Assembly: GCA_038045365.1 (NCBI GenBank)
Contig: JBBSYH010000005.1
Coordinates: forward strand, 12,713 to 64,733
DNA length: 52,021 nucleotides
From: Nanobdellota archaeon
Lineage (GTDB): Archaea; Nanobdellota; Nanobdellia; Pacearchaeales; GW2011-AR1
Reading direction: 5' to 3'
A model generated the notes under the pieces. It saw nothing but the letters and a program-made list of their open reading frames with translations. It ran no database searches and had not been told where the DNA came from. Below, piece by piece: positions 28,600-43,518 of the stretch (the stretch's first letter is position 1; each line of letters begins with the position of its first letter). The translations under genes were made by a program, and so were the position numbers.

Positions 28600-30141
28600 T
28601 CAAAATTTATCAAGACTTGTGGCTTTTTCCTTATTTTTTAATTCTTCTTTTATTATATGTATGGTTTTATGCATTTTTCTTTCTCTTGCAGAAGATGCAT
28701 AGTGATGGATTTCATCTTTTGTGTCTTTTGTTATTAGGATGATGAGCTTACCTGGGGAAAGACGAGCTGTTCTTCCTGTGCGCTGAATTTTTCTGATTGC
28801 TGAGGGAACTGGTTCGTAAAAGATAACTGCGGAAACTTCCGGGATATCTAGGCCTTCTTCGCCTATTGAAGTACAAACAAGAATGTTTATTTCTCCTTCT
28901 TTAAATTTTTCTATGATTTGCTTTTGCTCTTTTTGAGAGAGGCCAGTATTGCCGTGCTTTGTGGCTTTTTTTGCCTGACCGACGAAGACAGATGGTTTTA
29001 TACCAGTAATTTGAGAGAGATGATGGTAAATTAACGATGCGGTTTCTCTGAATTGAGTAAAAATAATTATTTTTGCATCTTTATTTTCTTTAAATTCATT
29101 TTCAATTAGAATAGAGAGTTTTTCTATTTTAGGATGTTCAAATTTCTTTGAAAGAAGATGCTGGATAGAAATCATAGCTGCGTTGAATTCTGGAGATTTA
29201 ACAAGAGATTGAACAGCTCTACTTTTTTTATCGATAGCTTGTTTTTGGAGGGATTTGAGATATTCATTAAGACCAGAAAGAGTTTGTGTTTCCAGGAGTT
29301 CCAGAGCATGAGAAATTTTTATTGCCTGGGCTGTGAGAGTCATTCCGTACATGGCGGCAAAGTTTCTTTGTGAGACTTGCATGGCAAGACGTGTTTGAAG
29401 ATTTAAGAGAGTTATTTTGTTTGCTGGACCTTGAAGATAATTTCTTTCTCTGAGCTTGTTAGTTGCATTGTCGAAGATGCGCTTAAAGAGAACGCGAAGC
29501 TCAATAAATTCTTGCGGAAAAGGAATTTCTATTTTTTGGAATTCAAGCTCTTGAAGATAAGGCTTAACATCCGGAGAATCGCGAGTTCTTAATTCTATTT
29601 TTTGGATGTTAAGATTTTTGCATATTTGTTTTACTATTTCAGGATCTGAGCCAGGAGAAGCTGTGAGACCAAGAATTTTTTCGTTAACAGCTTGGTGCTT
29701 GTATTTTTCTACTACTTTTGTATAATCGTAGTTTTTTAAACAACGATGGGCTTCGTCAATGATAAGCAGAGAAACTTCTTTAAGATCATAGAGGAAGTTT
29801 TCTAAATCATTAGCAATGCATTGCGGAGTTGAAAATATTATTTCTGCTGTTTGCCAGATTTTTTTTCTTTTTTCTGCTTGAACAGAGCCTGTAAAGAATT
29901 GAAGATCTGCAAATAACTCTGAAAGGTTTTTTTTGAAATAGTTGAAATGCTGTTCTATTAATGGTTTTGTAGGAGCTAAGAATAATATTTTGCTGAGAGG
30001 ATGTTTTTTTAGTGTTTCTATTGAAAGCATGAGAGCGATGAGAGTTTTTCCCAACCCTGTTGGTAAGACAACTAAAGCGTTGTACTTTTTTGCTGTTTCG
30101 AATATTGCTGTTTGGTATTCTCTCGGATTTATTAATAACAT
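28600..30141 (-). CDS. hef: Hef/FANCM-like SF2 helicase module (no nuclease domain)
   Basis: 513 aa. PREYQ, motif I LPTGLGKT, motif II DEAH, TASPG, inserted helical domain, and motif VI QRTGRTAR. Confidence 0.85.
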   Translation of the reverse strand: MLLINPREYQTAIFETAKKYNALVVLPTGLGKTLIALMLSIETLKKHPLSKILFLAPTKPLIEQHFNYFKKNLSELFADLQFFTGSVQAEKRKKIWQTAEIIFSTPQCIANDLENFLYDLKEVSLLIIDEAHRCLKNYDYTKVVEKYKHQAVNEKILGLTASPGSDPEIVKQICKNLNIQKIELRTRDSPDVKPYLQELEFQKIEIPFPQEFIELRVLFKRIFDNATNKLRERNYLQGPANKITLLNLQTRLAMQVSQRNFAAMYGMTLTAQAIKISHALELLETQTLSGLNEYLKSLQKQAIDKKSRAVQSLVKSPEFNAAMISIQHLLSKKFEHPKIEKLSILIENEFKENKDAKIIIFTQFRETASLIYHHLSQITGIKPSVFVGQAKKATKHGNTGLSQKEQKQIIEKFKEGEINILVCTSIGEEGLDIPEVSAVIFYEPVPSAIRKIQRTGRTARLSPGKLIILITKDTKDEIHHYASSARERKMHKTIHIIKEELKNKEKATSLDKF

Positions 30142-30185
30142 AAAAAAGAAAGAAAACAGAAGTTTAAATTTATTGCTTTAGTGTG

Positions 30186-30824
30186 CTAGATATAGAATTG
30201 AAGTGAATATGCAGAAAATATTAAAGAAATGAGCATTAATATAGCCCAGAGAACTCTGGAACCGAAAAATATTTGTGTACCGTCAAGTTTAGAGAAGGGC
30301 AACAGATTAAAGAAAGTATAAAAAGAGGTAATCGCGGAGAGATATTCTTCATTTATTAAGTAAAATATAATTGCCAGTGCAAACAAAGGAAGCATACCTG
30401 CTGTACCAATTATTCCATTATGCCAATCAGTCATTTCAGTATAACTATAGAATCCAAATCTTTTTGCTGCACGCACTTTAAGAGCACGCGATTCATATGT
30501 AAGAAAAGTTAGAAGTTTGAATGAACCAAGCGTGACTATGGAAAAAAGTAATGGGAAAATTATTCCTGCAGGAATTTCTTTTTTAAGCTGATGTTTTTCG
30601 CCTAATCCGAATCTTGACATTTTCCAGATTTCGTGTTCAACATCAGAATCAAGAAGATATGCAACTATCTTTTTTGAAGTTATTACTACAAAAATAAGAA
30701 GGGCAGAAAAAAAGAAAAACTTTGGGAGATCAGACCATTGAGCATTAATAATTGAAGGAACTCCAATTACTATCGTGAAAAGAAATATTGCGAGCAATAT
30801 ATCTAGGAATTCTGATGATTTCAT
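30186..30824 (-). CDS. M50 (site-2 protease)-like membrane protein lacking a recognisable HExxH
   Basis: 212 aa, polytopic. The NxxPxxxLDG-type motif is present (NLLPFSKLDG). No HExxH is visible; the expected region reads ITSKKIVAYLL. Confidence 0.45.
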   Translation of the reverse strand: MKSSEFLDILLAIFLFTIVIGVPSIINAQWSDLPKFFFFSALLIFVVITSKKIVAYLLDSDVEHEIWKMSRFGLGEKHQLKKEIPAGIIFPLLFSIVTLGSFKLLTFLTYESRALKVRAAKRFGFYSYTEMTDWHNGIIGTAGMLPLFALAIIFYLINEEYLSAITSFYTFFNLLPFSKLDGTQIFFGSRVLWAILMLISLIFSAYSLQFYI

Positions 30825-30932
30825 AAATTTTCTAGATGAAAGGTTTATATAAATATTATGGCGAAATTTATAAGTTTAATATGTGCTTTGAAAAAACACA
30901 AAATATAAATAGTGTGATAAATAGGCTTTGCA

Positions 30933-31235
30933 ATGCTCAGAATAAAAAACGTAAGCGATGTTATAGGGAAAAAAGTATATACTTCTGATGGGGACTTCTT
31001 TGGGCAAATAGAGGAGGTAAATATTGCGGATAATAGGATAGAAGGGTGGAGAATAAGAGTTGGTTCCGAGATGATGAGTGCGCTTGGAGGCGCAAGAGGC
31101 GTGATAATTCCCCATCAGTTTGTTAAAGCAGTCGGGGATATTTTTATAATAAATAAAGCTTCATTACCTATGAGGGATGATTCTCTAGATGTGATTTCTG
31201 AAAGCAACAATTCAATTCAAGAAGAACTGGTTTGA
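30933..31235 (+). CDS. PRC-barrel domain protein
   Basis: 100 aa. NVSDVIGKKVYTSDGDFFGQIEEVNIADNRIEGWRIRV is the PRC-barrel pattern. Confidence 0.55.
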   Translation: MLRIKNVSDVIGKKVYTSDGDFFGQIEEVNIADNRIEGWRIRVGSEMMSALGGARGVIIPHQFVKAVGDIFIINKASLPMRDDSLDVISESNNSIQEELV

Positions 31236-31264
31236 TACAAGAGAAGATTTAAATATTAAGATTA

Positions 31265-31762
31265 ATGAAAGAAGACATGGTTGAGCACAATATATTCGCG
31301 GAGCCCCTGGCACAGACGATATTTTTATTTATATTTGTTTTTACACTTGTTTTTGCAATATTGCAAAAGTCCCAGATTTTAGGCAAAGAAAAAAAACAAG
31401 TTGATGCACTTATTGGGTTTGCAATAGCAATGATTGTTACGTCAGTAGGATACGCAAGCGATATTATTTCAAGGTTAATTCCATTTTTGGCGGTAAGCCT
31501 AGTCATTATATTTGTTTTCATGATTTTGCTAGGATTTTTTTTCAAAGAAGATAGCTTTGATATTTCTGCCAAGATGAAAGTAGTTTTTGGAATATTTATT
31601 TTTATAGCAGTAGCATCAGCTGTTTTGACAATAGTTGGGGGATGGGACTATATAACTGGCTTATTTAGGGGAGAATTTCTCTTAATTGAAAATATTATCT
31701 TTTTTTTAGTGATAGGCGGAGCAATTGCAATTGTTTTTGCTTTTGACAAAAAGAAATCATAA
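31265..31762 (+). CDS. Membrane protein, paralog 1 of a 3-gene family
   Basis: 165 aa. Shares the N-terminal block with the next two genes (FLFIFVFTLVFAILQKSQILG vs YLLPFLLVFAIVFGILSTTNILG vs YFLPVLSFLVVFAVVYAVFSKTKIV). Confidence 0.4.
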   Translation: MKEDMVEHNIFAEPLAQTIFLFIFVFTLVFAILQKSQILGKEKKQVDALIGFAIAMIVTSVGYASDIISRLIPFLAVSLVIIFVFMILLGFFFKEDSFDISAKMKVVFGIFIFIAVASAVLTIVGGWDYITGLFRGEFLLIENIIFFLVIGGAIAIVFAFDKKKS

Positions 31763-31818
31763 ATAAATGTTCTTTACAGTAACGAAACATATATAAATAA
31801 GATTAAAATTGCATAGGT

Positions 31819-32370
31819 ATGGTTTTAGATATTGGCACCATATTATCACAATGGCAGAGCGGCGGAGTTTTCGATTATTTACTGCCATTTTTACTTGTAT
31901 TTGCAATAGTTTTCGGAATACTTTCAACAACTAATATTTTAGGGGCTAATAAAGGGATAAGCGTGATAATTGCTGTAGTAGTAGGATTATTATCATTAAA
32001 GTTTAATTTTGTTTCAGAGTTTTTTGGTGAAGTTTTTTCGAGACTTGCAGTGGGATTATCTGTTCTGCTTGTTTTATTGATTTTAATAGGGCTTTTTATA
32101 CCGGATGACGAAAGAAGATATTGGTTTTGGGGACTTGGAGCAATAGGAGTTGTGATTGCAATAGTAGTAGTTGCGCAGTCATTTGAAAGACTTGGATATT
32201 ATTCAGGCGTTTATGAAAACTATGCTGGATGGATAATTGGGGCTGTTTTACTTCTTGGACTTATTATTGCAGTAGCTACGAGTGGCGGGAATAAGGACGG
32301 AAGCGGTTCTAGAGGTGCAGGCGGGAGCATTCCTGTGATTGCTAACTTAACTCCTTGGCGCGATAAGTAA
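31819..32370 (+). CDS. Membrane protein, paralog 2
   Basis: 183 aa. Same N-terminal block, 4-5 TM segments, and a Gly/Ser-rich tail. Confidence 0.4.
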   Translation: MVLDIGTILSQWQSGGVFDYLLPFLLVFAIVFGILSTTNILGANKGISVIIAVVVGLLSLKFNFVSEFFGEVFSRLAVGLSVLLVLLILIGLFIPDDERRYWFWGLGAIGVVIAIVVVAQSFERLGYYSGVYENYAGWIIGAVLLLGLIIAVATSGGNKDGSGSRGAGGSIPVIANLTPWRDK

Positions 32371-32375
32371 GGAAA

Positions 32376-32612
32376 ATGGGTGCAATTGAGCTTTCTGGAA
32401 TAATCTATTTTTTACCTGTACTTAGTTTTCTTGTTGTTTTTGCTGTAGTTTACGCAGTTTTCTCCAAGACTAAAATAGTAGAATCACAAGGGCTAAAGAC
32501 TTTTATTGCTTTTCTTTTTGCAACTATTTTTGTTTCGATGAGCGAGGCAAGAATGTATATTTTGAATATTACAATTTGGTTTGCTATATTGGATTTTTTG
32601 AAAGTAAAATAA
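32376..32612 (+). CDS. Membrane protein, paralog 3 (short form, 78 aa)
   Basis: Has the same N-terminal block but stops after about two TM segments. Its stop lies 8 nt before repeat unit A. Confidence 0.35.
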   Translation: MGAIELSGIIYFLPVLSFLVVFAVVYAVFSKTKIVESQGLKTFIAFLFATIFVSMSEARMYILNITIWFAILDFLKVK

Positions 32613-32619
32613 TTTTTTC

Positions 32620-32738
32620 TGATACAGAAAACAAACTCCTGCTTTTAAGCTGGAGTTCTCCGTCGTTTGTTTTCTGTCTAAAAAACTCCAAAAAAACTGC
32701 GGACTTTAGGTCCGCAGATGTCGCAAGGAGTTTTTTAT
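32620..32738. repeat. Structured repeat unit A, copy 1 (two hairpin modules)
   Basis: Matches 45991-46108 with 3 differences. A1 is a 12-bp stem CAGAAAACAAAC/GTTTGTTTTCTG. A2 has outer stem AAAAAACTCC/GGAGTTTTTT and inner stem CTGCGGAC/GTCCGCAG. Confidence 0.9.
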
Positions 32739-32858
32739 TATGTCAAGGAACTTGAAGAAAACCTTGCCTTGAAAGGCAAGGTTGTTCCTTGAGCATCCAA
32801 AAGTCCTAAACAAACCATGGGCTTTAGCCCATGGTCAAACACAAGGACTTTTTGATTT
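32739..32858. repeat. Structured repeat unit B, copy 1 (two hairpin modules)
   Basis: Matches 36224-36343 with 4 differences. B1 has outer stem TCAAGGAAC/GTTCCTTGA and inner stem ACCTTGCC/GGCAAGGT. B2 has outer stem AAAAGTCCT/AGGACTTTT and inner stem CCATGGGC/GCCCATGG. Confidence 0.9.
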
Positions 32859-33526
32859 TAATTTATAGATTTTTGATTCGAAAGGCCTATAAAAGATTTT
32901 TGAGTTTCTATTATTTCCTTCTTAATATCTTCTATGTTAGTCATATATTCCCCGACTTTTTGCAATATTGAAAGTTGCAGCCTATCAATTATTTTCTCAA
33001 TTCTTTTAAGCCTTTCGTCTAAATGCTGCACCATTGACTCCACGTTATTCTTCATATCAAGTATTTCTTCTAGTTTATCTTTTAGAGGAGAGAGCTTTTC
33101 TAGAACTAGTTGTTCTGATATTTCTGTTATTGTATCTGCGCTTAGAGAGCTTGAAGAGTATTGTTCATACTGCGGATTATTAAAATATTGCGATTCAGGA
33201 GGTTCTTGATATTCCTGTTCTGGATATGATTGAAATTCTGATTGAGGAGCAGCTGTTTGTTTAGGAATTTCTTTTTGCTGAACAGGAGGCTCAGGTTCAA
33301 GCGGCTCTTTTTCCAGGAGAGAAGGATGCATACCTATAATATTTACGGATGATTTGTCAGAAGAATTTTCAAAAGCATTCTCTGAAACAGCTTCTTTTAT
33401 TTTTGCCTGAATAAAAACACTATTTATCTCATTTTTAGAAAGTCCGCGCTGCTGCAGAGCGGCAGATATCTCTTCCTCTGATTTTCCTTCATCTTGCATC
33501 CTCTTTATATCTTCAAATGTTCCCAT
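32858..33526 (-). CDS. Coiled-coil protein with a low-complexity linker (possible pilus-locus accessory protein)
   Basis: 222 aa from ATG 33526 (the track extends to TTG 33550). Small N-terminal helical domain, Q/E/P-rich linker, C-terminal heptad-rich region. Divergent from the ATPase gene. Confidence 0.4.
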   Translation of the reverse strand: MGTFEDIKRMQDEGKSEEEISAALQQRGLSKNEINSVFIQAKIKEAVSENAFENSSDKSSVNIIGMHPSLLEKEPLEPEPPVQQKEIPKQTAAPQSEFQSYPEQEYQEPPESQYFNNPQYEQYSSSSLSADTITEISEQLVLEKLSPLKDKLEEILDMKNNVESMVQHLDERLKRIEKIIDRLQLSILQKVGEYMTNIEDIKKEIIETQKSFIGLSNQKSIN

Positions 33527-33527
33527 T

Positions 33528-33830
33528 TTATTTTTGCCTGAATAAATCAAGCTGTCTTTGTATTATCATTAACTCTTCTTTTCTTGCAACATTTCCAAGC
33601 AGTTCTATTACTCTTTGCAAAATTTCCTGAATTCTAGAATTTTCTTCTTTTATTTGGATAATGTATTTTTTAGTCTGCTGTATTTCAGAAAAGTTTTTCT
33701 CTCTTTCTTTAGTAAATGTTTGTCCAAGAAGAGTTACCCTGTCTTTTAGAAGACGCTGTTTTTCCTCTATGTCGCGTATGCGAGTATTGATTTCTAATGT
33801 AAAATTATCTTGTGTATAAACCCCTTCCAT
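33528..33830 (-). CDS. Small coiled-coil protein
   Basis: 100 aa, heptad-rich. Its stop lies 1 nt from the downstream ATG. Confidence 0.35.
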   Translation of the reverse strand: MEGVYTQDNFTLEINTRIRDIEEKQRLLKDRVTLLGQTFTKEREKNFSEIQQTKKYIIQIKEENSRIQEILQRVIELLGNVARKEELMIIQRQLDLFRQK

Positions 33831-33886
33831 GTTTTTAACAGGGGCTCTGGGTTTAAAATAGTTTTGGATGCAGAAATACGAGAACC

Positions 33887-36217
33887 TTGCAATTTTCGCA
33901 AAACGAAATATATTTAATTATAGAAGATAGAGAATTTCAAGAGCAAAAAATGATATTTAAAGAGGGAAGTCCGCTTTACTCAACTGAAATTGAAAGAAAG
34001 CAAGGAGAGGAGATTATGTATGTAAATTACATGACTGCTCCGTTTGTTCCAAATATAGCAAGCAATCCCAGCGTGATGGCGAGAACAATTGATTTTCTTA
34101 TTGGAAATCAAGGAGTTTCAAGAATAATTTTTGTACAACAGAGGAACTATAATTATCCGTCAGAACAAGTTTTTATGCTCTCTGAAATTGCAAGAATATA
34201 CAATTATTTAGTACAACAGGAAATGCTTCTTTCTCCTGTGAAATTAAGCGTGTTTGGCAATGTACCAGAAGTGCATAGTGATTTAAGCTATATTTTAACT
34301 TTGCTTAAACAAGATCCGTTTGCTTGCTATACAGAGTTAAGAAAGAGAATAAGACTTTTGAGAGAGCAAAATGATTCTGGAGAGGTTATAAACAGAGCAG
34401 GAATAAGTTCTTATATAAGACTTCTTGAAAAGATAGCTAATATGATTGAGGGTACAAAACTTATTCAAATTGCAACTGCGAAAACAGACGGATATTCATT
34501 CGGAAATAGGGAGATTTACAAGACAATTTTCAGGCCAGATGTAATGCCAAATTTTAGTTTTACTAGACTTGTTGCACAATTTCCGCAAGATGCTGAATTT
34601 ATAGATCAGTATGAGATAGAGAGCGAATTTGAAAGTGTTACAGTTAGTATATTGAAAATGAAGAACGATTTAAAATACTTTTATCATTTGATACCTGCAG
34701 AATATTCAATAAGTGAAGAGTACCACATGCTTTTGGAGCTTGCGAGGAATGTTTTAATAGAACATAAGCCAAAAGCGGAAGAATTTACTGATCCAGAGAA
34801 AACACGGCAAGTTTTTTTTAATGTTTCAAGAGATTTACTGGGCGAATTATCAAAAAATAAAGGGATGGAGCTTAGCCATAATGATTTGAACAAACTTGCT
34901 AAAATTTTAGTAAGACATACTATAGGATTTGGACTGATAGAAGTACTTCTCGCAGATAATAAATTGCAGGATATAGTGTTAAATGCTCCAATAGCGCAAA
35001 ATCCTATTTTTGTAAGACATGAAAAATATGATGAATGTGTGACAAATATAATTCCAAGCTATGAAGATGCAGATTCCTGGGCTGCAAAACTGCGTTTGCA
35101 ATCTGGCAGACCATTAGACGAAGCAAATCCTATTTTAGACACTGAATTAATTTTAAGCGAGGGAAGAGCTAGAGTTGCTGCTATAAAAGAACCACTTTCT
35201 CCTTCCGGACTTGCGTATGCTTTTAGAAGACACAGAGATAGTCCATGGACTCTTCCTCTTTTTATAAAAAATAAAATGCTGAATTCTTTTTGTGCAGGAT
35301 TATTAAGTTTTTTAGTTGATGGGAGCAGAACAATGTTAGTAGCTGGAACTAGATCAAGCGGAAAAAGCAGTTTGCTTGGTGCGCTTATGCTTGAAGTTAT
35401 GCCGAATGTAAGAACAATAGTAGTTGAAGACACTCTTGAGCTGGGAGTTGATGTAATGAGAAAAGTTGGGTATGACATTTTAAGAATGAAAGTAAGAAGT
35501 GCACTTGTTTCTGGAACAACAGAAGTGGAAGCATCAGAAGGAATTAGGGCGAGTTTGAGACTTGGAGATTCTGCGCTAATTATTGGAGAAGTAAGATCAA
35601 CTGAAGCAAAGGCCTTGTATGAAGCAATGAGAGTTGGAGCGCTTGCAAATGTAGTTGCTGGAACAATACATGGAGATTCACCCTATGGAGTTTTTGATAG
35701 AGTTGTAAATGATATTGGAATTCCAGAGACAAGTTTTAAGGCAACTGATTTAATAATTATAGCAAATCCTGTAAAGACAGCTGATGGATTGCATTCAAAA
35801 AGAAGATTAGTGAGCTTAACTGAAGTAAGAAAACACTGGACAAAGGACCCGCTAATTGAAAAAGGATTTGTTGATTTATTGAAATATAATGTTGAGAAAG
35901 ATGAGCTTGAGCCTACACAAGAACTGATAAATGGAGAATCTGAAATAATTAAGCAAATAGCTGGAAATGTGAAGGGATGGGCTGGAAATTGGGATGCGGT
36001 TTATGATAATATAATATTAAGAGGAAAAATAAAGCAAGAGATTGTTGATGCAGCGGATAAATATAATAAGCCGGAGATTCTTGAGGCTAGGTTTAATGTT
36101 CTTTCAAACAATGCTTTTCATAGAATAAGCGACGAAGTTCGAGAAGAATATGGCTTGCCTTTAAGCGAACATGTTTTTCCAAGATGGAAGAAATGGCTAT
36201 ATGAGAATATAAAATAA
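33887..36217 (+). CDS. Type IV pilus/archaellum-type secretion ATPase (FlaI/PilB/VirB11 superfamily) with a long N-terminal extension
   Basis: C-terminal ATPase core: Walker A GTRSSGKSS, Walker B/Asp box IVVEDTLEL, IIGEVRSTEA, His box GTIHGDSP. About 400 aa precede the core. Start is uncertain (TTG 33887 or ATG 33950). Confidence 0.8.
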   Translation: MQFSQNEIYLIIEDREFQEQKMIFKEGSPLYSTEIERKQGEEIMYVNYMTAPFVPNIASNPSVMARTIDFLIGNQGVSRIIFVQQRNYNYPSEQVFMLSEIARIYNYLVQQEMLLSPVKLSVFGNVPEVHSDLSYILTLLKQDPFACYTELRKRIRLLREQNDSGEVINRAGISSYIRLLEKIANMIEGTKLIQIATAKTDGYSFGNREIYKTIFRPDVMPNFSFTRLVAQFPQDAEFIDQYEIESEFESVTVSILKMKNDLKYFYHLIPAEYSISEEYHMLLELARNVLIEHKPKAEEFTDPEKTRQVFFNVSRDLLGELSKNKGMELSHNDLNKLAKILVRHTIGFGLIEVLLADNKLQDIVLNAPIAQNPIFVRHEKYDECVTNIIPSYEDADSWAAKLRLQSGRPLDEANPILDTELILSEGRARVAAIKEPLSPSGLAYAFRRHRDSPWTLPLFIKNKMLNSFCAGLLSFLVDGSRTMLVAGTRSSGKSSLLGALMLEVMPNVRTIVVEDTLELGVDVMRKVGYDILRMKVRSALVSGTTEVEASEGIRASLRLGDSALIIGEVRSTEAKALYEAMRVGALANVVAGTIHGDSPYGVFDRVVNDIGIPETSFKATDLIIIANPVKTADGLHSKRRLVSLTEVRKHWTKDPLIEKGFVDLLKYNVEKDELEPTQELINGESEIIKQIAGNVKGWAGNWDAVYDNIILRGKIKQEIVDAADKYNKPEILEARFNVLSNNAFHRISDEVREEYGLPLSEHVFPRWKKWLYENIK

Positions 36218-36223
36218 TTTAAT

Positions 36224-36343
36224 TATGTCAAGGAACTTGAAGAAAACCTTGCCTTTCAAGGCAAGGTTGTTCCTTGAGCATCCAAAAGTCCTAAACAGAC
36301 TATGGGCTTTAGCCCATGGTCAAACACAAGGACTTTTTGATTT
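36224..36343. repeat. Structured repeat unit B, copy 2
   Basis: Fills the gap between the convergent stops at 36217 and 36349. Differs from copy 1 by the central GA->TC of the B1 palindrome, one A->G, and one C->T in the B2 stem. Confidence 0.9.
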
Positions 36344-36348
36344 ATAGT

Positions 36349-38490
36349 TTATATTGAGATTAGAGCTATGGCTGCCAAAAGCGAAAGAGAAATTATTGAG
36401 ACAAGAGCAGTTATAATATAGAGTGAAATTCCTCTTTTCAAGTTTTTAGAAAGTTCATATTTTTCTTTTAGAGGGTCTTTTCCAGAATCTATTGTTGCTA
36501 ATGCAGAAGTAAGAATAAAAATAATTTCAATGATGTAGATTCCTATTGCAATCTGGATGAAATATGGAGGTATCATTTGAGAAACGTTAAATATTTCAGT
36601 TATTTTTGAGAAGTTTCCAAGTGAATTTGCATTTTCTGCTAAAGAATTTATTTGAAGAGATGACAGCTTGTTTAAAATTATGGTTATCATTGAAGATAAT
36701 CCTACAATAATTCCTGCAAGAAGAGGAGCTAGAAAAGTCATGTTAGATTTCATATCCGAAACTATTTCTGCAAGAAGATCTTTAAGGCGCTGATTGATTT
36801 TCTGAATGTTTTTTAGGTATTCTGAAATTGACATAAGTGATTGGGATGCAATCTGAAGACCTTTTTTGATTGATTCTACCAATATTTTCATGGAAGTCGC
36901 AATTAAAACAGATGGATAATAAATTATTGCGCCTCTTTTCTTGTCGAATATTGCTTTTTCGACAGACATTCCAAATTGCCTGATGTTTTGATTTACGAGA
37001 GAGAAAAAGCTTTGAGTTGTTTGACCCGTAGTTGATTCTGAAACCTTTGCAAAAATCATTTCTGCAGGTATGCCGTCTCCAAGGCGATTGCCTAATTGGA
37101 AAAGAGAATTTGTAAATTCTTCTTCAAGCAATTTTGTTTTTTCTCTTGCTATTATAAGATCCTTTGTTTTTAATGAATAAGCTGTTGAAAAGAAAACAGC
37201 TATAGAGAGAGGTATGAAAAGGCTTAAAAGAACAGCTACAAGTCCAAATGGCCCCACTTTTCCATCTTGGGTTTCTTTAAAGTCAAAAACGTTTAATTCT
37301 GGAAACAAGCTTAATCCGATTTCTCCAAAAGAATAGTCGCTTTTGAGACCAAGAGGCTCCACAATAAAGCCAATTTGGAATATAAAAGGAATTATTCCGA
37401 TGAGGAATAGCGGGAAAGCATATAAAAATGCTTTTTTCCAGGGTTTCTTTGATATAAATTTTGGATAATCTGGATTTAGTTCAAGAATTGAAGATTCTCC
37501 ATAGCCGCCAGGCCGCTTGAGCAGAACTTCTGATGACATGTAAAAAACAATAAATGGGATTATAACATTAAAGACAATGAAAATATGCTGCCATTTTATT
37601 GTTCCTTGAAGAAGAGTAGAAGCCAGCGGAAGGAGAGCAAGGCCAAGAGTTGGGAGGATTATTCCAAGCATGTAGATGTTTGTAAGAGGGGAGCGTATTT
37701 CTCTCGAGTATTTAAGTGTTTTTTCATAAATTCCGTCAAGAATTACTTGCAGCGCTTTTTCAAGAATTTCAATTCTTTTATTTTCTGATGGTTCGTAAAG
37801 AGAGGATTCAATTAAATGAAATGATTCTATGAATTCTGGAGAGTATTCTCTCCAACTTTGCAAATAATTTTCGAGAGATTGTTTCATTGTAGAAAATTTT
37901 CCTATTTCTACATCATAAAATACTTTTTTGAAATCATTAGCAAGAGGGCCCTTGAGATGCTGAGAAGCAAATTCAACAGCTTTTTCCAAGTTTGAAGTGT
38001 GCTTCATGTAAATAACTATATAGAGGATTGAAGGAACCATCTGTGAAGAAGCACTAAGACGCCATGAGTTTGCCAGTCTTTGAGGGAATGTATATGTGTA
38101 ATAAAAAACAAAAATACTTGCTATTAAGCCGAGGAACAGGAAAAGGAGCTGGAAAGAGCCAGAGATAAAGTAAATCGCAGTTGTAATAAGAATTATTGCG
38201 AGGAAAGAGCCAAGCATTGAAAATAGAGAAAGCCCAATTGCCTGGCTCGGAGTAATTTCTATATTTGCTGAGTCGATATATTTTTGCATTTTTACTCTAT
38301 CTTTTTCTGCAACTTTTATTGAAATTATACTGCCTAAAGACTTTGCCCATTTTTCATAGGAAGATGGTTCCCGATACATTTCTTTTTTGAATTTAGAATA
38401 CTCCTGCGAAACATTTTTTGAGGTAGACAAACTAATTTCCTGCTCTATTCTTTTAGAGTATTTTTTTATAATATCTTCTGTCTGCGCCAT
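36349..38490 (-). CDS. FlaJ/TadC/PilC-like polytopic platform protein (T2SS-F family)
   Basis: 713 aa with two blocks of cytoplasmic helical domain plus TM clusters. Positioned between the pilus ATPase gene and the pilin operon. Confidence 0.65.
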   Translation of the reverse strand: MAQTEDIIKKYSKRIEQEISLSTSKNVSQEYSKFKKEMYREPSSYEKWAKSLGSIISIKVAEKDRVKMQKYIDSANIEITPSQAIGLSLFSMLGSFLAIILITTAIYFISGSFQLLFLFLGLIASIFVFYYTYTFPQRLANSWRLSASSQMVPSILYIVIYMKHTSNLEKAVEFASQHLKGPLANDFKKVFYDVEIGKFSTMKQSLENYLQSWREYSPEFIESFHLIESSLYEPSENKRIEILEKALQVILDGIYEKTLKYSREIRSPLTNIYMLGIILPTLGLALLPLASTLLQGTIKWQHIFIVFNVIIPFIVFYMSSEVLLKRPGGYGESSILELNPDYPKFISKKPWKKAFLYAFPLFLIGIIPFIFQIGFIVEPLGLKSDYSFGEIGLSLFPELNVFDFKETQDGKVGPFGLVAVLLSLFIPLSIAVFFSTAYSLKTKDLIIAREKTKLLEEEFTNSLFQLGNRLGDGIPAEMIFAKVSESTTGQTTQSFFSLVNQNIRQFGMSVEKAIFDKKRGAIIYYPSVLIATSMKILVESIKKGLQIASQSLMSISEYLKNIQKINQRLKDLLAEIVSDMKSNMTFLAPLLAGIIVGLSSMITIILNKLSSLQINSLAENANSLGNFSKITEIFNVSQMIPPYFIQIAIGIYIIEIIFILTSALATIDSGKDPLKEKYELSKNLKRGISLYIITALVSIISLSLLAAIALISI

Positions 38491-38579
38491 TCTTTTTTAT
38501 CAGAAAATTAAACAATAGGATGTTATAAATTATGTGGTTTAGACATTAGATTTAATAATCTTGCAATCTATACAAGCAG

Positions 38580-38735
38580 ATGAAAAAAAGAGGACAAACA
38601 GCATGGGACAACCTTATACCTTGGATAATAGGCATAATTGTGCTTGCACTTGTAGTAATATTTTATATGTCTTTATCAGATAAAAGCACAGGAGCATTGA
38701 AATTTATAAGAGACATATTGAGGTTTGGAAAATGA
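38580..38735 (+). CDS. Mini pilin-like protein with a class III signal peptide (51 aa; below the ORF-track cutoff)
   Basis: Translated by hand: MKKRGQTAWDNLIPWIIGIIVLALVVIFYM... KRG|Q followed by a hydrophobic helix. ATGA overlap with the next gene. Confidence 0.5.
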   Translation: MKKRGQTAWDNLIPWIIGIIVLALVVIFYMSLSDKSTGALKFIRDILRFGK

Positions 38736-39415
38736 AAGGAGAATTGCATTTATCTTATTTAATAGGGGGAGTGATTGCAATTTTTGTATTAATAATGGTT
38801 GGAGCATTTGCATATAGTTTTTTTAGCGGAAAAGCAATTCCTTTCTCCAAATATCTGCCAAGTTTTGATTATGAAAATGAAAAGATTGCAGGTGTGGAAA
38901 GCTTTAGGTATTTAATAAGAGAGGATAAAGTGCAGTATTATGATGGGTTGAAATGGAATAATTTTGCAGAAGACAATATTGAGATTAATGAAAAAAATAT
39001 AGGGGAGAAAGAGATTTATGAAAAACTGAAGAATTTTTATTACAGAAGCAGAGACAGGAAGAAAATTGAAATAGAGAGAGGAATTCATGCAATAATTGAT
39101 CCTGAAATTGTTTATTCTGAGAAATTAGATAAAGAGCCAAACGAAAACAGCAGAGGAGATGCTGTGATTTATGTTTATAAAGATAATAAAGTTATAGGAT
39201 GGTACAGCTTTTCTTTGGAGAATAAGCTAACGCCGCACATTGAGCAACAGATTGAACAGAAAATAAATGAGGAAAAAATTATAGAAGAGGCTTTGAGATG
39301 GAGGGATGAGGCAGAAGAGACAATCAGGATTTCTGAAGTAAATGTGTGCCCAGAGAAAGTTGGAGAATATCTAGTAATAAATTTAAGAGAAGAAAAGGAG
39401 AAATGCAATGAATAA
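38732..39415 (+). CDS. Pilin-like protein (class III signal peptide)
   Basis: 227 aa. MKG|ELHLSYLIGGVIAIFVLIMVGAF at the N-terminus, then a hydrophilic domain. Confidence 0.5.
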   Translation: MKGELHLSYLIGGVIAIFVLIMVGAFAYSFFSGKAIPFSKYLPSFDYENEKIAGVESFRYLIREDKVQYYDGLKWNNFAEDNIEINEKNIGEKEIYEKLKNFYYRSRDRKKIEIERGIHAIIDPEIVYSEKLDKEPNENSRGDAVIYVYKDNKVIGWYSFSLENKLTPHIEQQIEQKINEEKIIEEALRWRDEAEETIRISEVNVCPEKVGEYLVINLREEKEKCNE

Positions 39416-39518
39416 AAATGGAATGATAGCCAGTATAATCAAAGATTATCTCCTTTGGATAATTTTTTTGATTATAGCAGGAGCAGTTGTATGGCTTGTA
39501 ATAAAGAATATTGCGTAA
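39408..39518 (+). CDS. Mini pilin-like peptide (36 aa; below the ORF-track cutoff)
   Basis: Translated by hand: MNKNGMIASIIKDYLLWIIFLIIAGAVVWLVIKNIA*. Its start overlaps the upstream stop (ATGAATAA). The first 16 nt are identical to the start of the gene at 41499. Confidence 0.35.
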   Translation: MNKNGMIASIIKDYLLWIIFLIIAGAVVWLVIKNIA

Positions 39519-39549
39519 TTGTTATAAAGCAGGGTTTCTTTGATTGAAG

Positions 39550-40566
39550 ATGGATAAGAAAGGGGAACTTACATCTACACAGATTGTTAGCATTACAATA
39601 GGAATTCTTGCATTAATAACAATGCTTTTTGCCTTGACATTGATTAAATTCGGAGAATATACTGATGAAGAATTATGCAAGCTGTCTGTTTTAGGAAGAG
39701 CGCATGCTGCTGATTCAATACAAGGAAGTTTGCCACTAAAGTGCAGCACAAAAAAAATATGTTTAACTAGGGGAAAAGGAGATTGCAGTGAAAATTTTGC
39801 TGGAGAAGAGATTGAAAAGATAAAGTTGTCTGCAGACGATACAAAAGCCGCGAGATTAATTGAAGAAGTAAGCGCAAGAGAGATGTATAATTGCTGGAGT
39901 ATGATGGGAGAAGGGAAAATTGATTTGTTTGGAAAATATGCTACAAGCAGGGGATTAGAAGTAACTGACAGCACATGTTTGATATGCTCTAGAGTAGCCA
40001 TTGACAAAGGAATAAGCGAGGATGTAATAAAAAAAGTTGATATTCATAGATATATGAAGGAAGAACTGGTTCCTCAAAGCAAGCTGACTTATATACAGAC
40101 TTTTACAGACAAAGTATCTGGAGCATATCCATCTGTTGATAGAGCAGCATATGAAAATGAAGCAAATTCTTTGAGAGAAGGAGATAGTTTATCTGGGAAT
40201 GGAAGAGAAATTGCACTTTTATTTATGCAGATAAAAGCAACCAAGGCTTCTGAAGTTCTTTCAAATCTTGGAAAAGATGTTTTTTTAATTGCAGCAGGAG
40301 GATATTTTGTTAATTTAGGCGCGAAAGGAGTGGCTGGAGTTCTTGTTGGAAAAGCAATCAGATTTATTTTGTTGCCAGTTGCAATAGGGACTGCGCCCGC
40401 AGCAGCTTTGAATGCATATTCTGGACAAATAACTGCTACAGGATATTGCGGCGAGTTTTCAACGAACGATGAGAAAGCAAAGGAAGGATGTTCAATTGTT
40501 CAGGCAATGCCTTATGATGCAAACAGGATAAATAATTTTTGTAAGTCAATAGAGGGAAATCCATGA
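39550..40566 (+). CDS. Pilin-like protein with an additional C-terminal hydrophobic region
   Basis: 338 aa from the ATG (the track starts at TTG 39544). MDKKG|ELTSTQIVSITIGILALITMLFAL. C-terminal Gly/Ala-rich hydrophobic segments (VFLIAAGGYFVNLGAKGVAGVLVG...LLPVAIGTAPAAAL). Confidence 0.5.
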   Translation: MDKKGELTSTQIVSITIGILALITMLFALTLIKFGEYTDEELCKLSVLGRAHAADSIQGSLPLKCSTKKICLTRGKGDCSENFAGEEIEKIKLSADDTKAARLIEEVSAREMYNCWSMMGEGKIDLFGKYATSRGLEVTDSTCLICSRVAIDKGISEDVIKKVDIHRYMKEELVPQSKLTYIQTFTDKVSGAYPSVDRAAYENEANSLREGDSLSGNGREIALLFMQIKATKASEVLSNLGKDVFLIAAGGYFVNLGAKGVAGVLVGKAIRFILLPVAIGTAPAAALNAYSGQITATGYCGEFSTNDEKAKEGCSIVQAMPYDANRINNFCKSIEGNP

Positions 40567-41093
40567 TAAAAAAAGGGCTTTTAGGCCATACTACCAGCAT
40601 AATTATTGCTGTTATAGGGTTGCTTCTGCTTGGAGCAGGCATATATAAAATGTATGGAATATTTAAGGGAGAAGATGAGAATATGAAAAAGACAATTGAT
40701 TCAATAGAAGGTAAAATTAAGAGACTTGAAGATGGAGATAAAGGAAAATTTTTAGTAAGAGGGAATAATAAGTGGTATGTTACTGGATGGAGCGCTGAGG
40801 AGAAGGGAAAGCCGGATAAATGCTATTTAAACAGCTGCATATGCATTTGCAAAGGCAATATTTTTGCAGGAGACGCGCTTTCTGGGGAAAGCTGCCAAAA
40901 AAAAGGATTTTGCAGAATTTTTGAAGAGAAAAAAGTGATAGTAAAGAGCGATCTAATTTTGAAGGCAGTTTATGCTACAGGAGAAAATTCTGCAGAGGGA
41001 ATAGATTCAAGCGGAATAATTTTTAAATCAAATTTAATTGAAATTGAGGTAAAAAAGGAAAAAGACAGCATAGAGGTTTCATATAGAGAATGA
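40563..41093 (+). CDS. Cys-rich pilin-like protein
   Basis: 176 aa. MIKKG|LLGHTTSIIIAVIGLLLLGAGIY. Cys cluster CYLNSCICICKG...SCQKKGFC. ATGA overlap with the upstream gene. Confidence 0.5.
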   Translation: MIKKGLLGHTTSIIIAVIGLLLLGAGIYKMYGIFKGEDENMKKTIDSIEGKIKRLEDGDKGKFLVRGNNKWYVTGWSAEEKGKPDKCYLNSCICICKGNIFAGDALSGESCQKKGFCRIFEEKKVIVKSDLILKAVYATGENSAEGIDSSGIIFKSNLIEIEVKKEKDSIEVSYRE

Positions 41094-41506
41094 TGAATAA
41101 GAAGGGAGAATCTGATTTTGGAGAGATATTGCTTGATAATACTGTTTATGTAATTCTTCTTGCTATTTTTGTTTTCGGAATTTTTGCATTTGTCTATCAA
41201 TTGAAAAATGGCGCAGTGATATGGGAAGACTACTATGCAAAGGAAGTTTCGAAAGTCTTGAATTTTGCAGAGAAAGGAGACAATATAGAAATAGATGTTC
41301 AAAAAGCAAGCGAAATAGCCGGAAAAAACAGAGTTGAATTAAGTGAAATGTTTTCTTTTAAAGAAAATGATGTATGTGTCAAGTTAAGCAAAATAAAGAA
41401 AACATGCTATGTTTATTTTAATGATATTAAGATTTTAAGCAGCAAAATAAAAGAGGGAACTCCTGTAAATATCTTAAGTATACAAATTGGGGGAAAAGAT
41501 GAATAA
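41090..41506 (+). CDS. Pilin-like protein
   Basis: 138 aa. MMNKKG|ESDFGEILLDNTVYVILLAIFVFGIFAF. ATGA overlap with the upstream gene. Confidence 0.5.
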   Translation: MMNKKGESDFGEILLDNTVYVILLAIFVFGIFAFVYQLKNGAVIWEDYYAKEVSKVLNFAEKGDNIEIDVQKASEIAGKNRVELSEMFSFKENDVCVKLSKIKKTCYVYFNDIKILSSKIKEGTPVNILSIQIGGKDE

Positions 41507-41945
41507 AAATGGAAAATTAGGGGATCAGATTTCATTTTTTTATTTTCTTTTTTTAATGATAATAATTGCTCTTGGAATTGCAGGAGGGGCTTATTTATTT
41601 TATGGGGGAGAGCATGATTTTAGAGAAGGGGAGAGCGAAATTCTTACTTATCTAGTTGAAGAATGTATGAAAGAGAAAGATGTGAAATGGGAGAATTTTT
41701 ATGAAGAATGCGGAATTAGCAAGGGAGCAATGGAAAAAGGGAAAATTATATTGAAGATTTGCAAAGAACAGTGCGGAAAAGAAGAAGTTTTTGTTTTTGG
41801 AAGTAATTTTGAAGCATGCGAGTTTAAAGGAGTATTTTCAAACAAAAATTATCCAAAATGCAGCACCAGAAAAACTGAAGTTAAGGGAATAACCTATGAA
41901 ATAATAGCGGGAAGCAATAATTTTGCGAGGAGACAAAATGAATAG
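41499..41945 (+). CDS. Cys-rich pilin-like protein
   Basis: 148 aa from the ATG (the track starts at TTG 41487). MNKNG|KLGDQISFFYFLFLMIIIALGIAGGAY. 8-nt ATGAATAA overlap with the upstream gene. Confidence 0.5.
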   Translation: MNKNGKLGDQISFFYFLFLMIIIALGIAGGAYLFYGGEHDFREGESEILTYLVEECMKEKDVKWENFYEECGISKGAMEKGKIILKICKEQCGKEEVFVFGSNFEACEFKGVFSNKNYPKCSTRKTEVKGITYEIIAGSNNFARRQNE

Positions 41946-42435
41946 AAGGGGACAAATTGATAAAATAATTTCTGCATTGCCTGTAATGATTTTAATTTTC
42001 TTGTTAATGGCTGTATTTGTTTTGCTTTCAAGCGCCATAAAAGTCTGGAAAGATCCAAACAGAGTGGAGATTTTCAGCTTTTCAGGAGGAAAATTTCTAA
42101 GCGAGATTGTGCAAGTCAATGAAAAAGAATATACTATAATAGATGGTCTTGCAAAAAGTGGAAATACACTTGTGCCTAGCAAGCAAAGCGAAGAAGAGAG
42201 AATTTTTTACAGCAAGTTTAGCAAAGAACTTATTAATTTAGCAGGAAAAGAGTGCATGATATTAAAATCCCCAACAAACTTTTTTTATATTCATGAAGGA
42301 ATTTTTGAAAGCACAGGAAATGAGGTAATATTAAAACATTATAGAGATAATGGGAAAATTTCCAGAATTTTACTAAACGTGGGAAAGAGACCTTATCAAG
42401 TTGAATATTATCATGGAGGATGTTTAAATGAATAA
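41938..42435 (+). CDS. Pilin-like protein
   Basis: 165 aa from the ATG (the track starts at TTG 41923). MNRRG|QIDKIISALPVMILIFLLMAVFVLL. 8-nt ATGAATAG overlap with the upstream gene. Confidence 0.5.
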   Translation: MNRRGQIDKIISALPVMILIFLLMAVFVLLSSAIKVWKDPNRVEIFSFSGGKFLSEIVQVNEKEYTIIDGLAKSGNTLVPSKQSEEERIFYSKFSKELINLAGKECMILKSPTNFFYIHEGIFESTGNEVILKHYRDNGKISRILLNVGKRPYQVEYYHGGCLNE

Positions 42436-42880
42436 GCAAGGACACATACCGACAATTCTTATGTTTGTAATTGCACTTGTTTTGTGCGTAACAAGCCTTG
42501 TTTCTTTTGCTAGTTATGGAGAAGTGGTAAGTGTAGACTCAAAGAAAATTTCAAATGCAATTACCAAAGCAGAGTTTCTTCAAGATTATATTTTAAAGAA
42601 CACAGAGATATCTGGAAGAGAAAGCATTATTTCAGAAGGAGAATTAAGAGATAATTTTAAGAAAATAACTGAAAAGAGGAATATTGAAATTGAAGGTGCT
42701 GGAAATTTCTTTGGAAAAGTCAGAAATGACGAGTTTGAGTTCAGAAGAGAGGGAGAAAGGTATTTTCTGATAATTAAAGGATTGTTTGTTGTTTCAGAAA
42801 ACGGAAATAATAAAATAAAGAGAGAATTTGATGTTTTTATGGAATTTGACGGCAACGGGAGATTATTGAACTCTGCATAA
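42428..42880 (+). CDS. Pilin-like protein
   Basis: 150 aa. MNKQG|HIPTILMFVIALVLCVTSLVSF. 8-nt ATGAATAA overlap with the upstream gene. Confidence 0.5.
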   Translation: MNKQGHIPTILMFVIALVLCVTSLVSFASYGEVVSVDSKKISNAITKAEFLQDYILKNTEISGRESIISEGELRDNFKKITEKRNIEIEGAGNFFGKVRNDEFEFRREGERYFLIIKGLFVVSENGNNKIKREFDVFMEFDGNGRLLNSA

Positions 42881-42929
42881 GATTTATAAACAAAAGATAA
42901 GTAAATATTGTATGTTGTTTGAAAAAGAT

Positions 42930-43385
42930 ATGAACAAAAGAGGGCAGGAAGGATTATCTATTACGACGCTTTTGATTATTATTCTAGGGATTGTTGTTGT
43001 AGTTGTCATAATTTTAGGAGTTACAAAGGGCTTTGGTTTTATATTCGGAAAAATAGATTTTCTTCCTGGACAGGATCTTCAGGCAGTTGCCGAATCTTGC
43101 GCTACTGCTGCACAGCTGAAATTAAAGATTGATTATTGCGTTGAATTTAAGAAGATAAAGGTTGATGGGGCAAAGGAATACGTAAACTGCGAGGATTCAA
43201 GAGTAGAAAGTGGAATAAAATCTGAAGTTGAGAAAATAGAGTGTGATAAAGATACAAGTCAGAAATATTGCGAGATTTTAATAGAAAGAAAAGAGTACAA
43301 TGCTAAAGTTAATGGAGTAAATATAGGGAGCAATAAAGACAGCAAAAATACTGCAAAAGAACATTGTGGAAGTATTTTCAAATAA
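42930..43385 (+). CDS. Cys-rich pilin-like protein
   Basis: 151 aa from the second ATG (the track starts at 42912). MNKRG|QEGLSITTLLIIILGIVVVVVIILGV. Six Cys in the soluble domain. Confidence 0.5.
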   Translation: MNKRGQEGLSITTLLIIILGIVVVVVIILGVTKGFGFIFGKIDFLPGQDLQAVAESCATAAQLKLKIDYCVEFKKIKVDGAKEYVNCEDSRVESGIKSEVEKIECDKDTSQKYCEILIERKEYNAKVNGVNIGSNKDSKNTAKEHCGSIFK

Positions 43386-43518
43386 ATTGATTCTTTAAGA
43401 TGGATTACGGATTTTCAAGCAAGAGAAAAAGCAAAAACGATAAACGGGCAAAAGGAAGATATAATAAGTATAAGAAAGGCGGGAAATACAGAACTGCATT
43501 TACAAAAGAAAAAAAATT

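Follow-up and report, generated by a model that had tools for sequence, protein, structure and literature searches.

Nested double-hairpin repeats of a groundwater pacearchaeal population as probable small palindromic mobile DNA elements

Units A and B are two short hairpin-forming repeats in a 52,021-nucleotide (nt) stretch of archaeal DNA (contig JBBSYH010000005.1, positions 12,713 to 64,733; here called the window, always at its full length), where each is present in two nearly identical copies. Taken together, the observations described below are consistent with a proposal in which A and B are small, non-autonomous, palindromic mobile DNA elements of DPANN archaea, resembling either the repetitive extragenic palindromic (REP) sequences of bacteria and their paired form (REPINs) or MITEs (miniature inverted-repeat transposable elements), and we regard this reading as probable. 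The units most likely stand closer to bacterial REP and MITE repeats than to dedicated terminators or RNA genes. They are multicopy, their occupancy of orthologous sites varies, and they show nested insertion, exchange of modules, inversion of loops, and a tendency to coincide with the ends of contigs.

Each unit is composed of two hairpin modules, as a sequence-only reading of this DNA had described and as folding bears out. Unit A copy 1 lies on the plus strand at 32617/32620-32738. Its first module, A1, has an outer stem at 32624-32636/32665-32677 and an inner hairpin at 32636-32655, and its second, A2, has an outer stem at 32679-32689/32727-32737 and an inner palindrome at 32697-32717 (CTGCGGAC-TTTAG-GTCCGCAG). 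Unit B copy 1 follows directly (32739-32858, plus strand), abutting A with a 5' end that reads TATGTC and closing with TTTTTGATTT at its 3' end. Module B1 pairs 32743-32751 with 32784-32792 and contains a 24-nt inner palindrome (32760-32783); the conserved linker GAGCATCC occupies 32791-32798; and module B2 pairs 32799-32807 with 32844-32852 and contains a 22-nt inner palindrome at 32814-32835 (ACCATGGGC-TTTA-GCCCATGGT). The second copies stand alone, both on the plus strand: B at 36224-36343, with inner palindromes at 36245-36268 and 36299-36320, and A at 45988/45991-46108, where the A2 inner hairpin (46068-46087) has one mismatch and a TTTA loop. An outer stem, an internal loop, and a perfect GC-rich inner stem are found in A2, B1, and B2 just as first reported, and so is the modular, noncoding, mix-and-match use of hairpins (A+B, B alone, and A alone).

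Alignment of the window copies upholds the reported counts of three differences in A, which are two substitutions and one 1-nt indel, and four in B, of which two form a loop inversion (TTCA in B1 of copy 2 versus TGAA in copy 1) and two lie at the base of the B2 inner stem; this stem in copy 2 has one T·G pair. The longest exact repeat in the window measures 58 nt, versus 15 to 17 nt in shuffled windows. Four hairpins form in the A+B block on each strand, with minimum free energies of -100.7 and -104.2 kcal/mol (z = -10.9 and -9.7), and five of the seven perfect GC-rich hairpins in the window (at least 7 bp and at least 50% GC) fall within units. Enrichment in GC, which had been called visible, is present but modest overall (0.38 to 0.41, versus 0.33 for the window), with the excess concentrated in the inner stems. 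The units hold no credible open reading frame (ORF) and no tRNA-like structure detectable by ARAGORN, and sensitive BLAST searches found no further copy of a unit or module within the window, nor any in the preceding 10 kb of the source contig, upstream of the window.

Beyond those limits, a search for further copies, which the sequence-only reading had proposed, was rewarded with a third A, a third B, and a diverged B, among others, so that each unit is now placed at at least three loci in one population, with family relatives in other metagenome-assembled genomes (MAGs). An exact 23-mer from module A1 of unit A retrieved one further record from a metagenome collection, a different Hainich groundwater contig, 44 kb in length (L115), whose copy of A (1598-1726) is 96% identical and has its A2 loop inverted from TTTA to TAAA. 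The same contig carries, 1.8 kb from its A copy and between divergent gene starts, a diverged B that keeps the single-stranded TTATGTC, GAGCATCC, and AAAA...TTTTTGATTT segments while three of its four stems are swapped for different, perfectly complementary sequences. The third B (L136:7138-7261) is 99.2% identical and starts 11 nt past an intron-containing tRNA gene, with a peptidyl-prolyl isomerase (PPIase) gene downstream of it, in the same assembly (ERZ1292627) as a window-like contig. The tRNA gene itself (L136:6976-7127, with an intron of about 80 nt) scores 49.5 bits with Rfam RF00005 and is missed by ARAGORN.

Contigs also break and rejoin at the units. Six of them end inside A (L003, L006, L007, L131, L132, and L134) and one starts inside B (L140). 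Others join the 78-amino-acid (aa) ORF that precedes the A+B block across a shared A or A+B to three other loci: to EF-1beta (L005/L130), which amounts to a 13.4-kb deletion or a chimera; to a PPIase/thermosome locus (L129/L135); and to a fourth gene (L133), which gives unit A an additional right flank. In L005, unit A is a hybrid between the two window copies. These contigs represent either real recombinants between copies or assembly chimeras.

A and B had been taken for unrelated sequences, a view that does not survive comparison with these copies and their relatives; they are two subfamilies of one superfamily whose modules recombine. Both fit the frame (A)TGTCA..-hairpin-GAGCAT(C/G)C-AAAA..hairpin..TTTTTGA, which recurs in a related Hainich pacearchaeote, in the Woesearchaeota MAG RIFCSPHIGHO2_02_FULL_36_13 (three loci), and in a single contig assigned by binning to Methanosarcinales. 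The Woesearchaeota version reads ATGTCAGAAAT-[variable]-ATTTCTGA-GCATGC-TCAAAAAC-[variable]-GTTTTTGACAT, and window A reads CAGAAAAC..GTTTTCTG-TC-TAAAAAACTCC..GGAGTTTTTTA, its A2 outer stem matching the Woesearchaeota TCAAAAACTCCGCA stem. Minimal "basal" forms of about 55 nt (e.g., L032:7557-7611) consist of two plain hairpins without GC-rich inner stems. Exchange of modules is seen in L120 (GCA_964365855.1), a syntenic Hainich relative whose FlaI-type ATPase is 75% identical to that of the window. There, copy c has an extra hairpin and an A1 module (83% identical) fused to a basal B2 outer hairpin, and copy a is a three-hairpin mosaic of a basal B1, an A1-like hairpin, and an A2-like hairpin, in which the B1 outer stem is identical to that of the window and the inner palindrome is missing. 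L120 also has a B with the B1 stems AAGATGC/GCATCTT. Truncated copies include a fragment of L120 at about 5960-6005 and a 5'-truncated copy in L088.

The same comparisons bear on the origin of the nested anatomy. In L120, the B2 outer stems enclose only the loops ACGAACAAACTCA and ACAAACAAACTCA, where the window has AAACAA[ACCATGGGCTTTAGCCCATGGT]CAAACACA, and B1 reads TCAAGGAACTT-GACAAA-AAGTTCCTTGA, where the window loop holds a 22- to 24-nt palindrome, CCTTGCCTTGAAAGGCAAGG(TT). In the Woesearchaeota MAG, GTCAAAAACCACCCATC|AGAGATGGGTGGCATG is contiguous at locus L086; at L032, a 57-nt basal double-hairpin element sits between flanks identical to those of L086, with an ATC/CATC direct repeat at its borders. 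Hairpin loops are thus sites where further palindromic elements come to lie, and it is the nesting of small GC-rich palindromes in the loops of AT-rich basal hairpins that yields the outer stem, the A-rich internal loop, and the inner stem rich in GC. The architecture that the modules had been said to share is present, but as a product of nesting; basal forms without an inner stem exist. Three independent and exact loop inversions (TGAA/TTCA in B1, TTTA/TAAA in A2, and one between the Aenigmatarchaeota sequences L095 and L073) leave the rest of the unit nearly unchanged; because cruciform or template-switch events produce such flips, they point to palindrome dynamics in DNA. The variants of the B1 outer stem (AAGGAAC/GTTCCTT, GGGGATTC/GAATCCCC, and AAGATGC/GCATCTT) are all perfectly paired. 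These stem comparisons were made directly from the sequences and from single-sequence folds, as MAFFT alignments of B are disturbed by the optional inner palindromes.

Occupancy of orthologous sites varies among close relatives. The window has three occupied sites, namely, those of the A+B block (site 1), the lone B (site 2), and the lone A (site 3), and its synteny with five relatives (L116, L117, L119, L120, and L126/L127) is excellent. All three sites are empty in L116, with spacers of 56, 14, and 11 nt. Site 2 is empty in L119 (1 nt) and is a 4-nt gene overlap with no element in L120. In L126, a 60-aa ORF fills the spacer at site 1 without an element, a 95-aa ORF (12278-12565) is present at site 2, and 2 to 3 nt remain at sites 2 and 3; in L127, a PIN/MazE toxin-antitoxin pair (12331-12910) is found at site 2. 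This convergent junction of the ATPase and a 713-aa membrane protein is an insertion hot spot. In L117, a JGI Pacearchaeota genome, at least the first and second A/B spacers hold a repeat of another kind (GAGAATTA[T/A]CTGATATCT...) and the third has only a partial GAATTATC match (8691-8805, 12350-12628, and 21653-21763, respectively); the A/B spacers seem to serve small repeats in general as landing sites. No GC hairpins or BLAST matches to the units were found at the empty orthologous loci of the relatives, and no family members were found among the syntenic relatives except in L120. That genome supplies the converse case: it has an element directly after the stop codon of a PRC gene, upstream of the conserved promoter AAGATTTAAATATTAA, at a site where the window and L116 have 29 to 50 nt and no element. 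Copies a (minus) and b (plus) of L120 lie 700 nt apart in opposite orientations.

The positions of the units relative to genes are best understood from the same spacers. At site 1, the stop codon of the 78-aa ORF (32376-32612, plus strand) precedes A+B, with a T6 run of its own (32613-32618) outside the repeat, and a 230-aa ORF with no Pfam match (32858-33550, minus strand) converges on the block, its stop codon (32858-32860) overlapping the last base of unit B. At site 2, the gene for the FlaI/VirB11-type secretion ATPase (33887-36217, plus strand), which serves as the synteny anchor, stops 6 nt before unit B copy 2, and the convergent gene for the 713-aa membrane protein (36349-38490, minus strand) stops 5 nt beyond it. 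Site 3 differs in that it lies between tandem genes and the unit is antisense to both: unit A copy 2 is 2 nt from the stop codon of the EF-1beta gene (46111-46383, minus strand) and 45 nt from the start codon of the downstream HIT-family gene (45334-45942, minus strand). A TATA-like TTTATAAT lies between the HIT start codon and the unit, placing the unit upstream of this box, and the corresponding gap between EF-1beta and HIT in relatives is only 2 to 11 nt. The statement that units sit 0 to 8 nt from stop codons holds except on the left side of the lone A, which faces a gene start. The broader claim that they are tied to gene 3' ends fails. Copies also occur between divergent starts (the B-like copy of L115 and the fragment in L120), after a tRNA gene, and between tandem genes downstream of a stop codon and upstream of the next promoter, and a 54-nt basal double hairpin lies in frame in the inter-domain linker of the tRNA methyltransferase Trm1 in the Woesearchaeota MAG, where it encodes MSEMLCISEHTQKSLIFD (L032:860-915, in an ORF at 596-1705 on the minus strand). 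Orientation is arbitrary relative both to neighboring genes and to other copies. Empty spacers in relatives range from -4 to 56 nt, and because they are so short, intergenic insertions that survive must lie close to stop codons; this explanation is simpler than targeting of stop codons, which we set aside.

Based on these comparisons, we propose a mechanism in which the basic element consists of two short AT-rich hairpins and a linker, TGTCA(G/A)AAA..TTTCTGA-GCAT(G/C)C-(TC)AAAA..TTTTTGA(CA). This element would be copied at the DNA level by a putative enzyme acting in trans, which probably recognizes hairpin or cruciform DNA, given that stem sequences are replaced without loss of perfect pairing. 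Perfect GC-rich palindromes of 20 to 24 nt would then come to sit in the hairpin loops and give rise to the nested anatomy. Copies would survive only in the few bases between genes and would thus abut stop codons, and recombination between copies would shuffle modules and rearrange the chromosome, or at least confound its assembly. Given that A-rich 5' arms and T-rich 3' arms yield a hairpin and a T-run on both strands, a copy can probably serve as a transcription stop or a 3'-end hairpin; we suggest that such a role would be a tolerated side effect or an exaptation rather than the reason for the elements' existence.

Several observations weigh against this proposal. Neither a transposase nor another candidate enzyme was found in about 90 kb of sequence from the population or beside related elements, and no transposase domain was found in the ORFs of the window or in the 62 kb around it. 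A search of the Woesearchaeota loci for an autonomous element bounded by paired TGTCA(G/A)AAA...TTT(C/T)TGACA ends 0.6 to 2.5 kb apart found none, as such pairs enclose housekeeping genes (aIF5B and a nucleotidyltransferase) and not transposases. There is no demonstrable target-site duplication (TSD): A has none, and the TTA...TTA that flanks B copies in most cases is invariant and may be element sequence. Filled and empty genomes share about 75% protein identity and have AT-rich spacers, which makes the exact insertion borders unreadable. Copy number is low, at at least three loci per unit and about four loci in 82 kb of unbiased sequence, and the match of the A 23-mer to just one further metagenome record implies that A is not high copy in that collection. 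Stems that stay perfectly paired through sequence replacement are also what selection on RNA structure would give; more generally, pairing through complete stem replacement would also fit a selected folded single strand, be it single-stranded DNA handled by an HUH-type enzyme or RNA. Finally, no terminator-like match in the 18 kb scanned (30000-48000) is stronger than the A2 inner hairpin with its minus-strand T7 run, which lies directly downstream of EF-1beta. On the matter of terminal inverted repeats (TIRs), which had been reported as absent, the ends of the family in relatives are TGTCA...TGACA-like: the Woesearchaeota ends ATGTCAGAAAT...GTTTTTGACAT match in inverted orientation at 9 of 11 positions, and those of the window match weakly (B, TGTCAAGG...TTTTTGAT(TT); A, TGATACAGAAAAC...GGAGTTTTTTAT). 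These apparent TIRs are the outer arms of two different hairpins.

Could the units instead be dedicated bidirectional terminators, or hairpins that stabilize 3' untranslated regions, kept by selection in a compact genome and repeated through duplication or gene conversion of a useful cassette? The A-rich 5' arms and T-rich 3' arms of A2 and B2, which give a hairpin and T5 to T7 on both strands, are what such an origin would predict; convergent genes flank two of the three window loci, and diverged copies keep perfectly paired stems. Nonetheless, we consider this origin unlikely. Only three spacers in about 62 kb carry units, almost all other gene ends in the window are without GC-rich hairpins, terminator-like sites are not enriched (13, versus 9.8 ± 2.8 in shuffles), and the same gene ends in the five syntenic relatives do without a hairpin in the short spacers described above. 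The 78-aa ORF already has its own T6 run ahead of the unit, B offers the minus-strand genes no run of five or more T, and other copies are found where gene starts diverge, downstream of a tRNA gene, ahead of promoters, and in frame in the ORF of a relative. Archaeal termination, moreover, needs oligo-T and not hairpins. The bidirectional terminator design attributed to the units stands insofar as A2 combines a hairpin and a T-run on both strands and B2 does so on the plus strand, with T5 to T6 runs after the outer stems, but it is neither general nor conserved. Termination or 3'-end protection would plausibly be a side effect that makes insertions tolerable, not their cause.

Structured noncoding RNA genes, either H/ACA-type multi-hairpin guide RNAs or other protein-binding small RNAs, are a still less probable explanation, in which the internal loops would be functional pockets and the GC-rich stems would reflect selection for RNA stability. 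The units do fold strongly (z about -10) and form GC-rich islands in an AT-rich genome, with a stem/internal loop/stem geometry superficially like that of pseudouridylation pockets; the single-stranded TATGTC, GAGCATCC, and TTTTTGATTT are conserved while stems covary; and the T·G pair in unit B copy 2 would be G·U on the plus strand. Against this, neither strand folds better than the other, the units show no fixed orientation toward genes, their loops can be inverted to the reverse complement, the inner stems may be missing, and copies are truncated, nested, shuffled, and absent from close syntenic relatives. The Rfam scan called for by the sequence-only reading, run on the window and 12 related loci, returned nothing but tRNAs, and neither the gathering nor a permissive threshold gave the units a match to a known family. 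An ACA box 14 to 16 nt from a pocket is absent (ATT or ATA follows the A2 lower stem, and the 3' loop and stem span 19 to 20 nt), as are a K-turn, K-loop, GA·AG motif, and C/D box. The H/ACA guide reading, for which box distance, K-turn, and Rfam match all fail, was rejected. That the repeats are artefacts of assembly or binning, with chimeric repeats made by the assembler, is scarcely credible: low-coverage contigs (coverage of 2) do join different loci across units and many contigs end inside them, but such breaks are what true dispersed repeats cause, the same units and flanks recur in independent assemblies (wells H32, H41, and H51, replicates, an NCBI MAG, and Logan) at a coverage of 5 to 8, and diverged relatives occur in other MAGs.

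Other candidate systems were tried and discarded. C/D box and CRISPR readings were rejected on sequence features. An integron attC site is suggested by some outer stems (A1 and B1) that end in AAC/GTT, but the purine/pyrimidine pattern fails, the variants in L115 and L120 lack AAC/GTT, and the neighbors are housekeeping genes (EF-1beta, aIF5B, and tRNA synthetases). Derivation from IS200/IS605 insertion sequences (ISs) would fit the hairpins and the absence of a TSD; it was rejected because the L120 copies are in opposite orientations 700 nt apart and no TnpA was seen.

The inner palindrome of B2 has a wider distribution than the units themselves. Its 18-nt core (ATGGGCTTTAGCCCATGG) matches 107 stretches of GTDB genomes, where single matches fit chance, and it has no matches in viral contigs. 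As CCATGGGCTTTAGCCCATGG, the core is also the center of multicopy repeats in many unrelated genomes, with a different outer context in each case. It lies within a B2-like outer stem preceded by a B1-like hairpin in three Aenigmatarchaeota MAGs and is central to repeats in two Woesearchaeota MAGs, one Altiarchaeota MAG, and a Saccharibacteria MAG whose accession (CAYI..) falls in the range of two Hainich Pacearchaeota MAGs. It is found in MAGs of the candidate phyla radiation (CPR) from groundwater, the Saccharibacteria MAG included, and in GTAG-prefixed REP-like arrays of Aliiglaciecola and Cyclobacteriaceae, among others. This recurrence may reflect either a tiny palindrome that spread horizontally or REP-like hairpins that converged. 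We speculate, while considering it rather doubtful, that the perfect GC-rich 20- to 24-nt palindromes are ultrasmall mobile DNA with a preference for entering the single-stranded loops of other hairpins and that one or more of these palindromes, such as CCATGGGC-TTTA-GCCCATGG, may move between domains. Such loop-inserting palindromes would build nested hairpin elements stepwise and, if real, would imply a mechanism of insertion targeted to hairpin loops that is common to episymbiotic DPANN and CPR.

The host is a Pacearchaeota/Nanoarchaeota population from Hainich groundwater. The window is archaeal because it encodes Cdc6/Orc1, both PolD subunits (DP1 and DP2), EF-1beta, aIF2-alpha, and a FlaI-type ATPase; the closest homologues of its proteins carry Pacearchaeota or Nanoarchaeota labels, with identities of at most 76%. 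It is the reverse complement of bases 1-52021 of contig CAYJCN010000001.1 (GCA_964368685.1), and its sequence is found again in many ENA assemblies made from the groundwater of Hainich wells H32, H41, and H51. Several other features of the window deserve mention. Positions 1-96 hold a 48-nt tandem repeat, with two exact copies and shifted 15/18-nt subrepeats, that is probably part of a repetitive coding region cut by the window start. The first 10 kb includes toxin-antitoxin type genes (910-1400 and 8855-9750: ParE, PemK-like, and an MNT/HepT nucleotidyltransferase pair), named according to the annotation of L122/L123. The cdc6/orc1 gene (12180-13385) is followed by those for the small and large PolD subunits, within 11414-18365, and an AT-only palindromic stretch upstream of cdc6/orc1 (11846-11901) is a candidate replication origin, despite which GC skew is positive throughout the window. 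Between the membrane protein gene and a prepilin peptidase (A24) gene lies a long run of small ORFs with no Pfam match (38580-45398); this run, next to the FlaI-type ATPase, keeps its gene order in all relatives and probably represents a locus for a pilus or an archaellum-like structure.

Among cellular genomes, those of DPANN archaea rank with the smallest and most compact, and they are usually called streamlined. If our proposal is correct, such genomes nevertheless harbor tiny palindromic elements as an evolving population, with turnover between close relatives, nesting, and exchange of modules, and these elements mark points of rearrangement and assembly breakage. The quality of MAGs is affected, as contigs end or are misjoined at the units. 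The units also bear on the origin of intergenic space and of gene-end signals in minimal genomes, and they motivate a search for an archaeal enzyme that moves hairpin DNA; no REP/RAYT-type system (RAYT, REP-associated tyrosine transposase) is known to have been characterized in archaea. Should CPR bacteria living in the same groundwater communities prove to have the inner palindromes as well, these palindromes would also mark the passage of DNA between domains there.

Known systems offer a range of partial likenesses. The BOX element of Streptococcus pneumoniae (boxA-boxB-boxC) likewise has modules in variable combinations, strong folding, a position after genes, and no ORF, but it is bacterial, follows a tandem boxB logic, and has no palindromes nested in loops. 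The Rickettsia palindromic elements (RPEs) and the Correia elements of Neisseria are palindromic non-autonomous repeats of reduced or compact genomes, and the Woesearchaeota family member in frame inside trm1 recalls the RPEs within Rickettsia genes. RPEs are single palindromes of 100 to 150 nt; Correia elements have clear 26-nt TIRs with a TA duplication and can supply terminators or promoters. Neither has sequence similarity to A or B.

In AT-rich mitochondrial genomes, palindromic GC clusters (yeast GC42 and others) undergo "merger and shuffling" (PMC4478555). Like A and B, they are GC-rich perfect palindromes in AT-rich compact genomes, intergenic and sporadic among relatives, with short flanking direct repeats, composite hairpin elements, and recombination hot spots. 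Unlike A and B, they are organellar, bear no sequence relationship to the units, and are not reported to have an AT-rich basal frame with conserved linkers. Their hosts belong to a different domain, and the likeness is one of analogy and not homology. The double-hairpin elements (DHEs) in the mitochondrial genomes of Allomyces offer a similar comparison.

The claim that DPANN-type archaea have no described equivalent proves too strong, as an automated census of MITEs from 2024 reports that, among archaea, MITE density is highest in an Altiarchaeum genome and a Woesearchaea genome (PMC11602168). Full-text literature searches did not find this family described, nor its conserved frame, nesting, and module exchange. 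As in MITEs, the elements are small (55 to 250 nt), noncoding, and dispersed, with truncated copies; the ends of the Woesearchaeota relatives are inverted repeats (ATGTCAGAAA / ATGTCAAAAA as the reverse complement); and the nested insertion is bordered by a 3- to 4-nt direct repeat. They differ from MITEs in that there is no known autonomous IS partner, a TSD is not demonstrable for A or B, and the inverted repeats are arms of two hairpins whose stems covary and are not conserved as TIRs bound by a transposase would be.

The REP sequences, bacterial interspersed mosaic elements (BIMEs), and REPINs of Proteobacteria are mobilized by RAYT transposases (PMC3116915, PMC3337134). No RAYT was found within about 90 kb of sequence from our population, the host is archaeal, the observed copy number is far lower, GTAG is absent beside the hairpins of A, B, and their DPANN relatives, and the outer stems are AT-rich with TG..CA-like ends. 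The likeness to REP/BIME mosaics first suggested for the units is nonetheless borne out. Short, imperfect palindromes of 20 to 40 nt occur as doublets joined by a linker (in the basal element, two related palindromes with GCATGC or GCATCC between them) and in mosaic combinations; they are mostly extragenic, just past stop codons, noncoding, and multicopy, with the hairpin kept while the sequence varies; and bacterial REP-like arrays with the B2 core have loops of the TGAA/TTCA and TTTA/TAAA types as well. A further difference from REP sequences is the hierarchical growth of the units, in which palindromes are nested in the loops of other palindromes.

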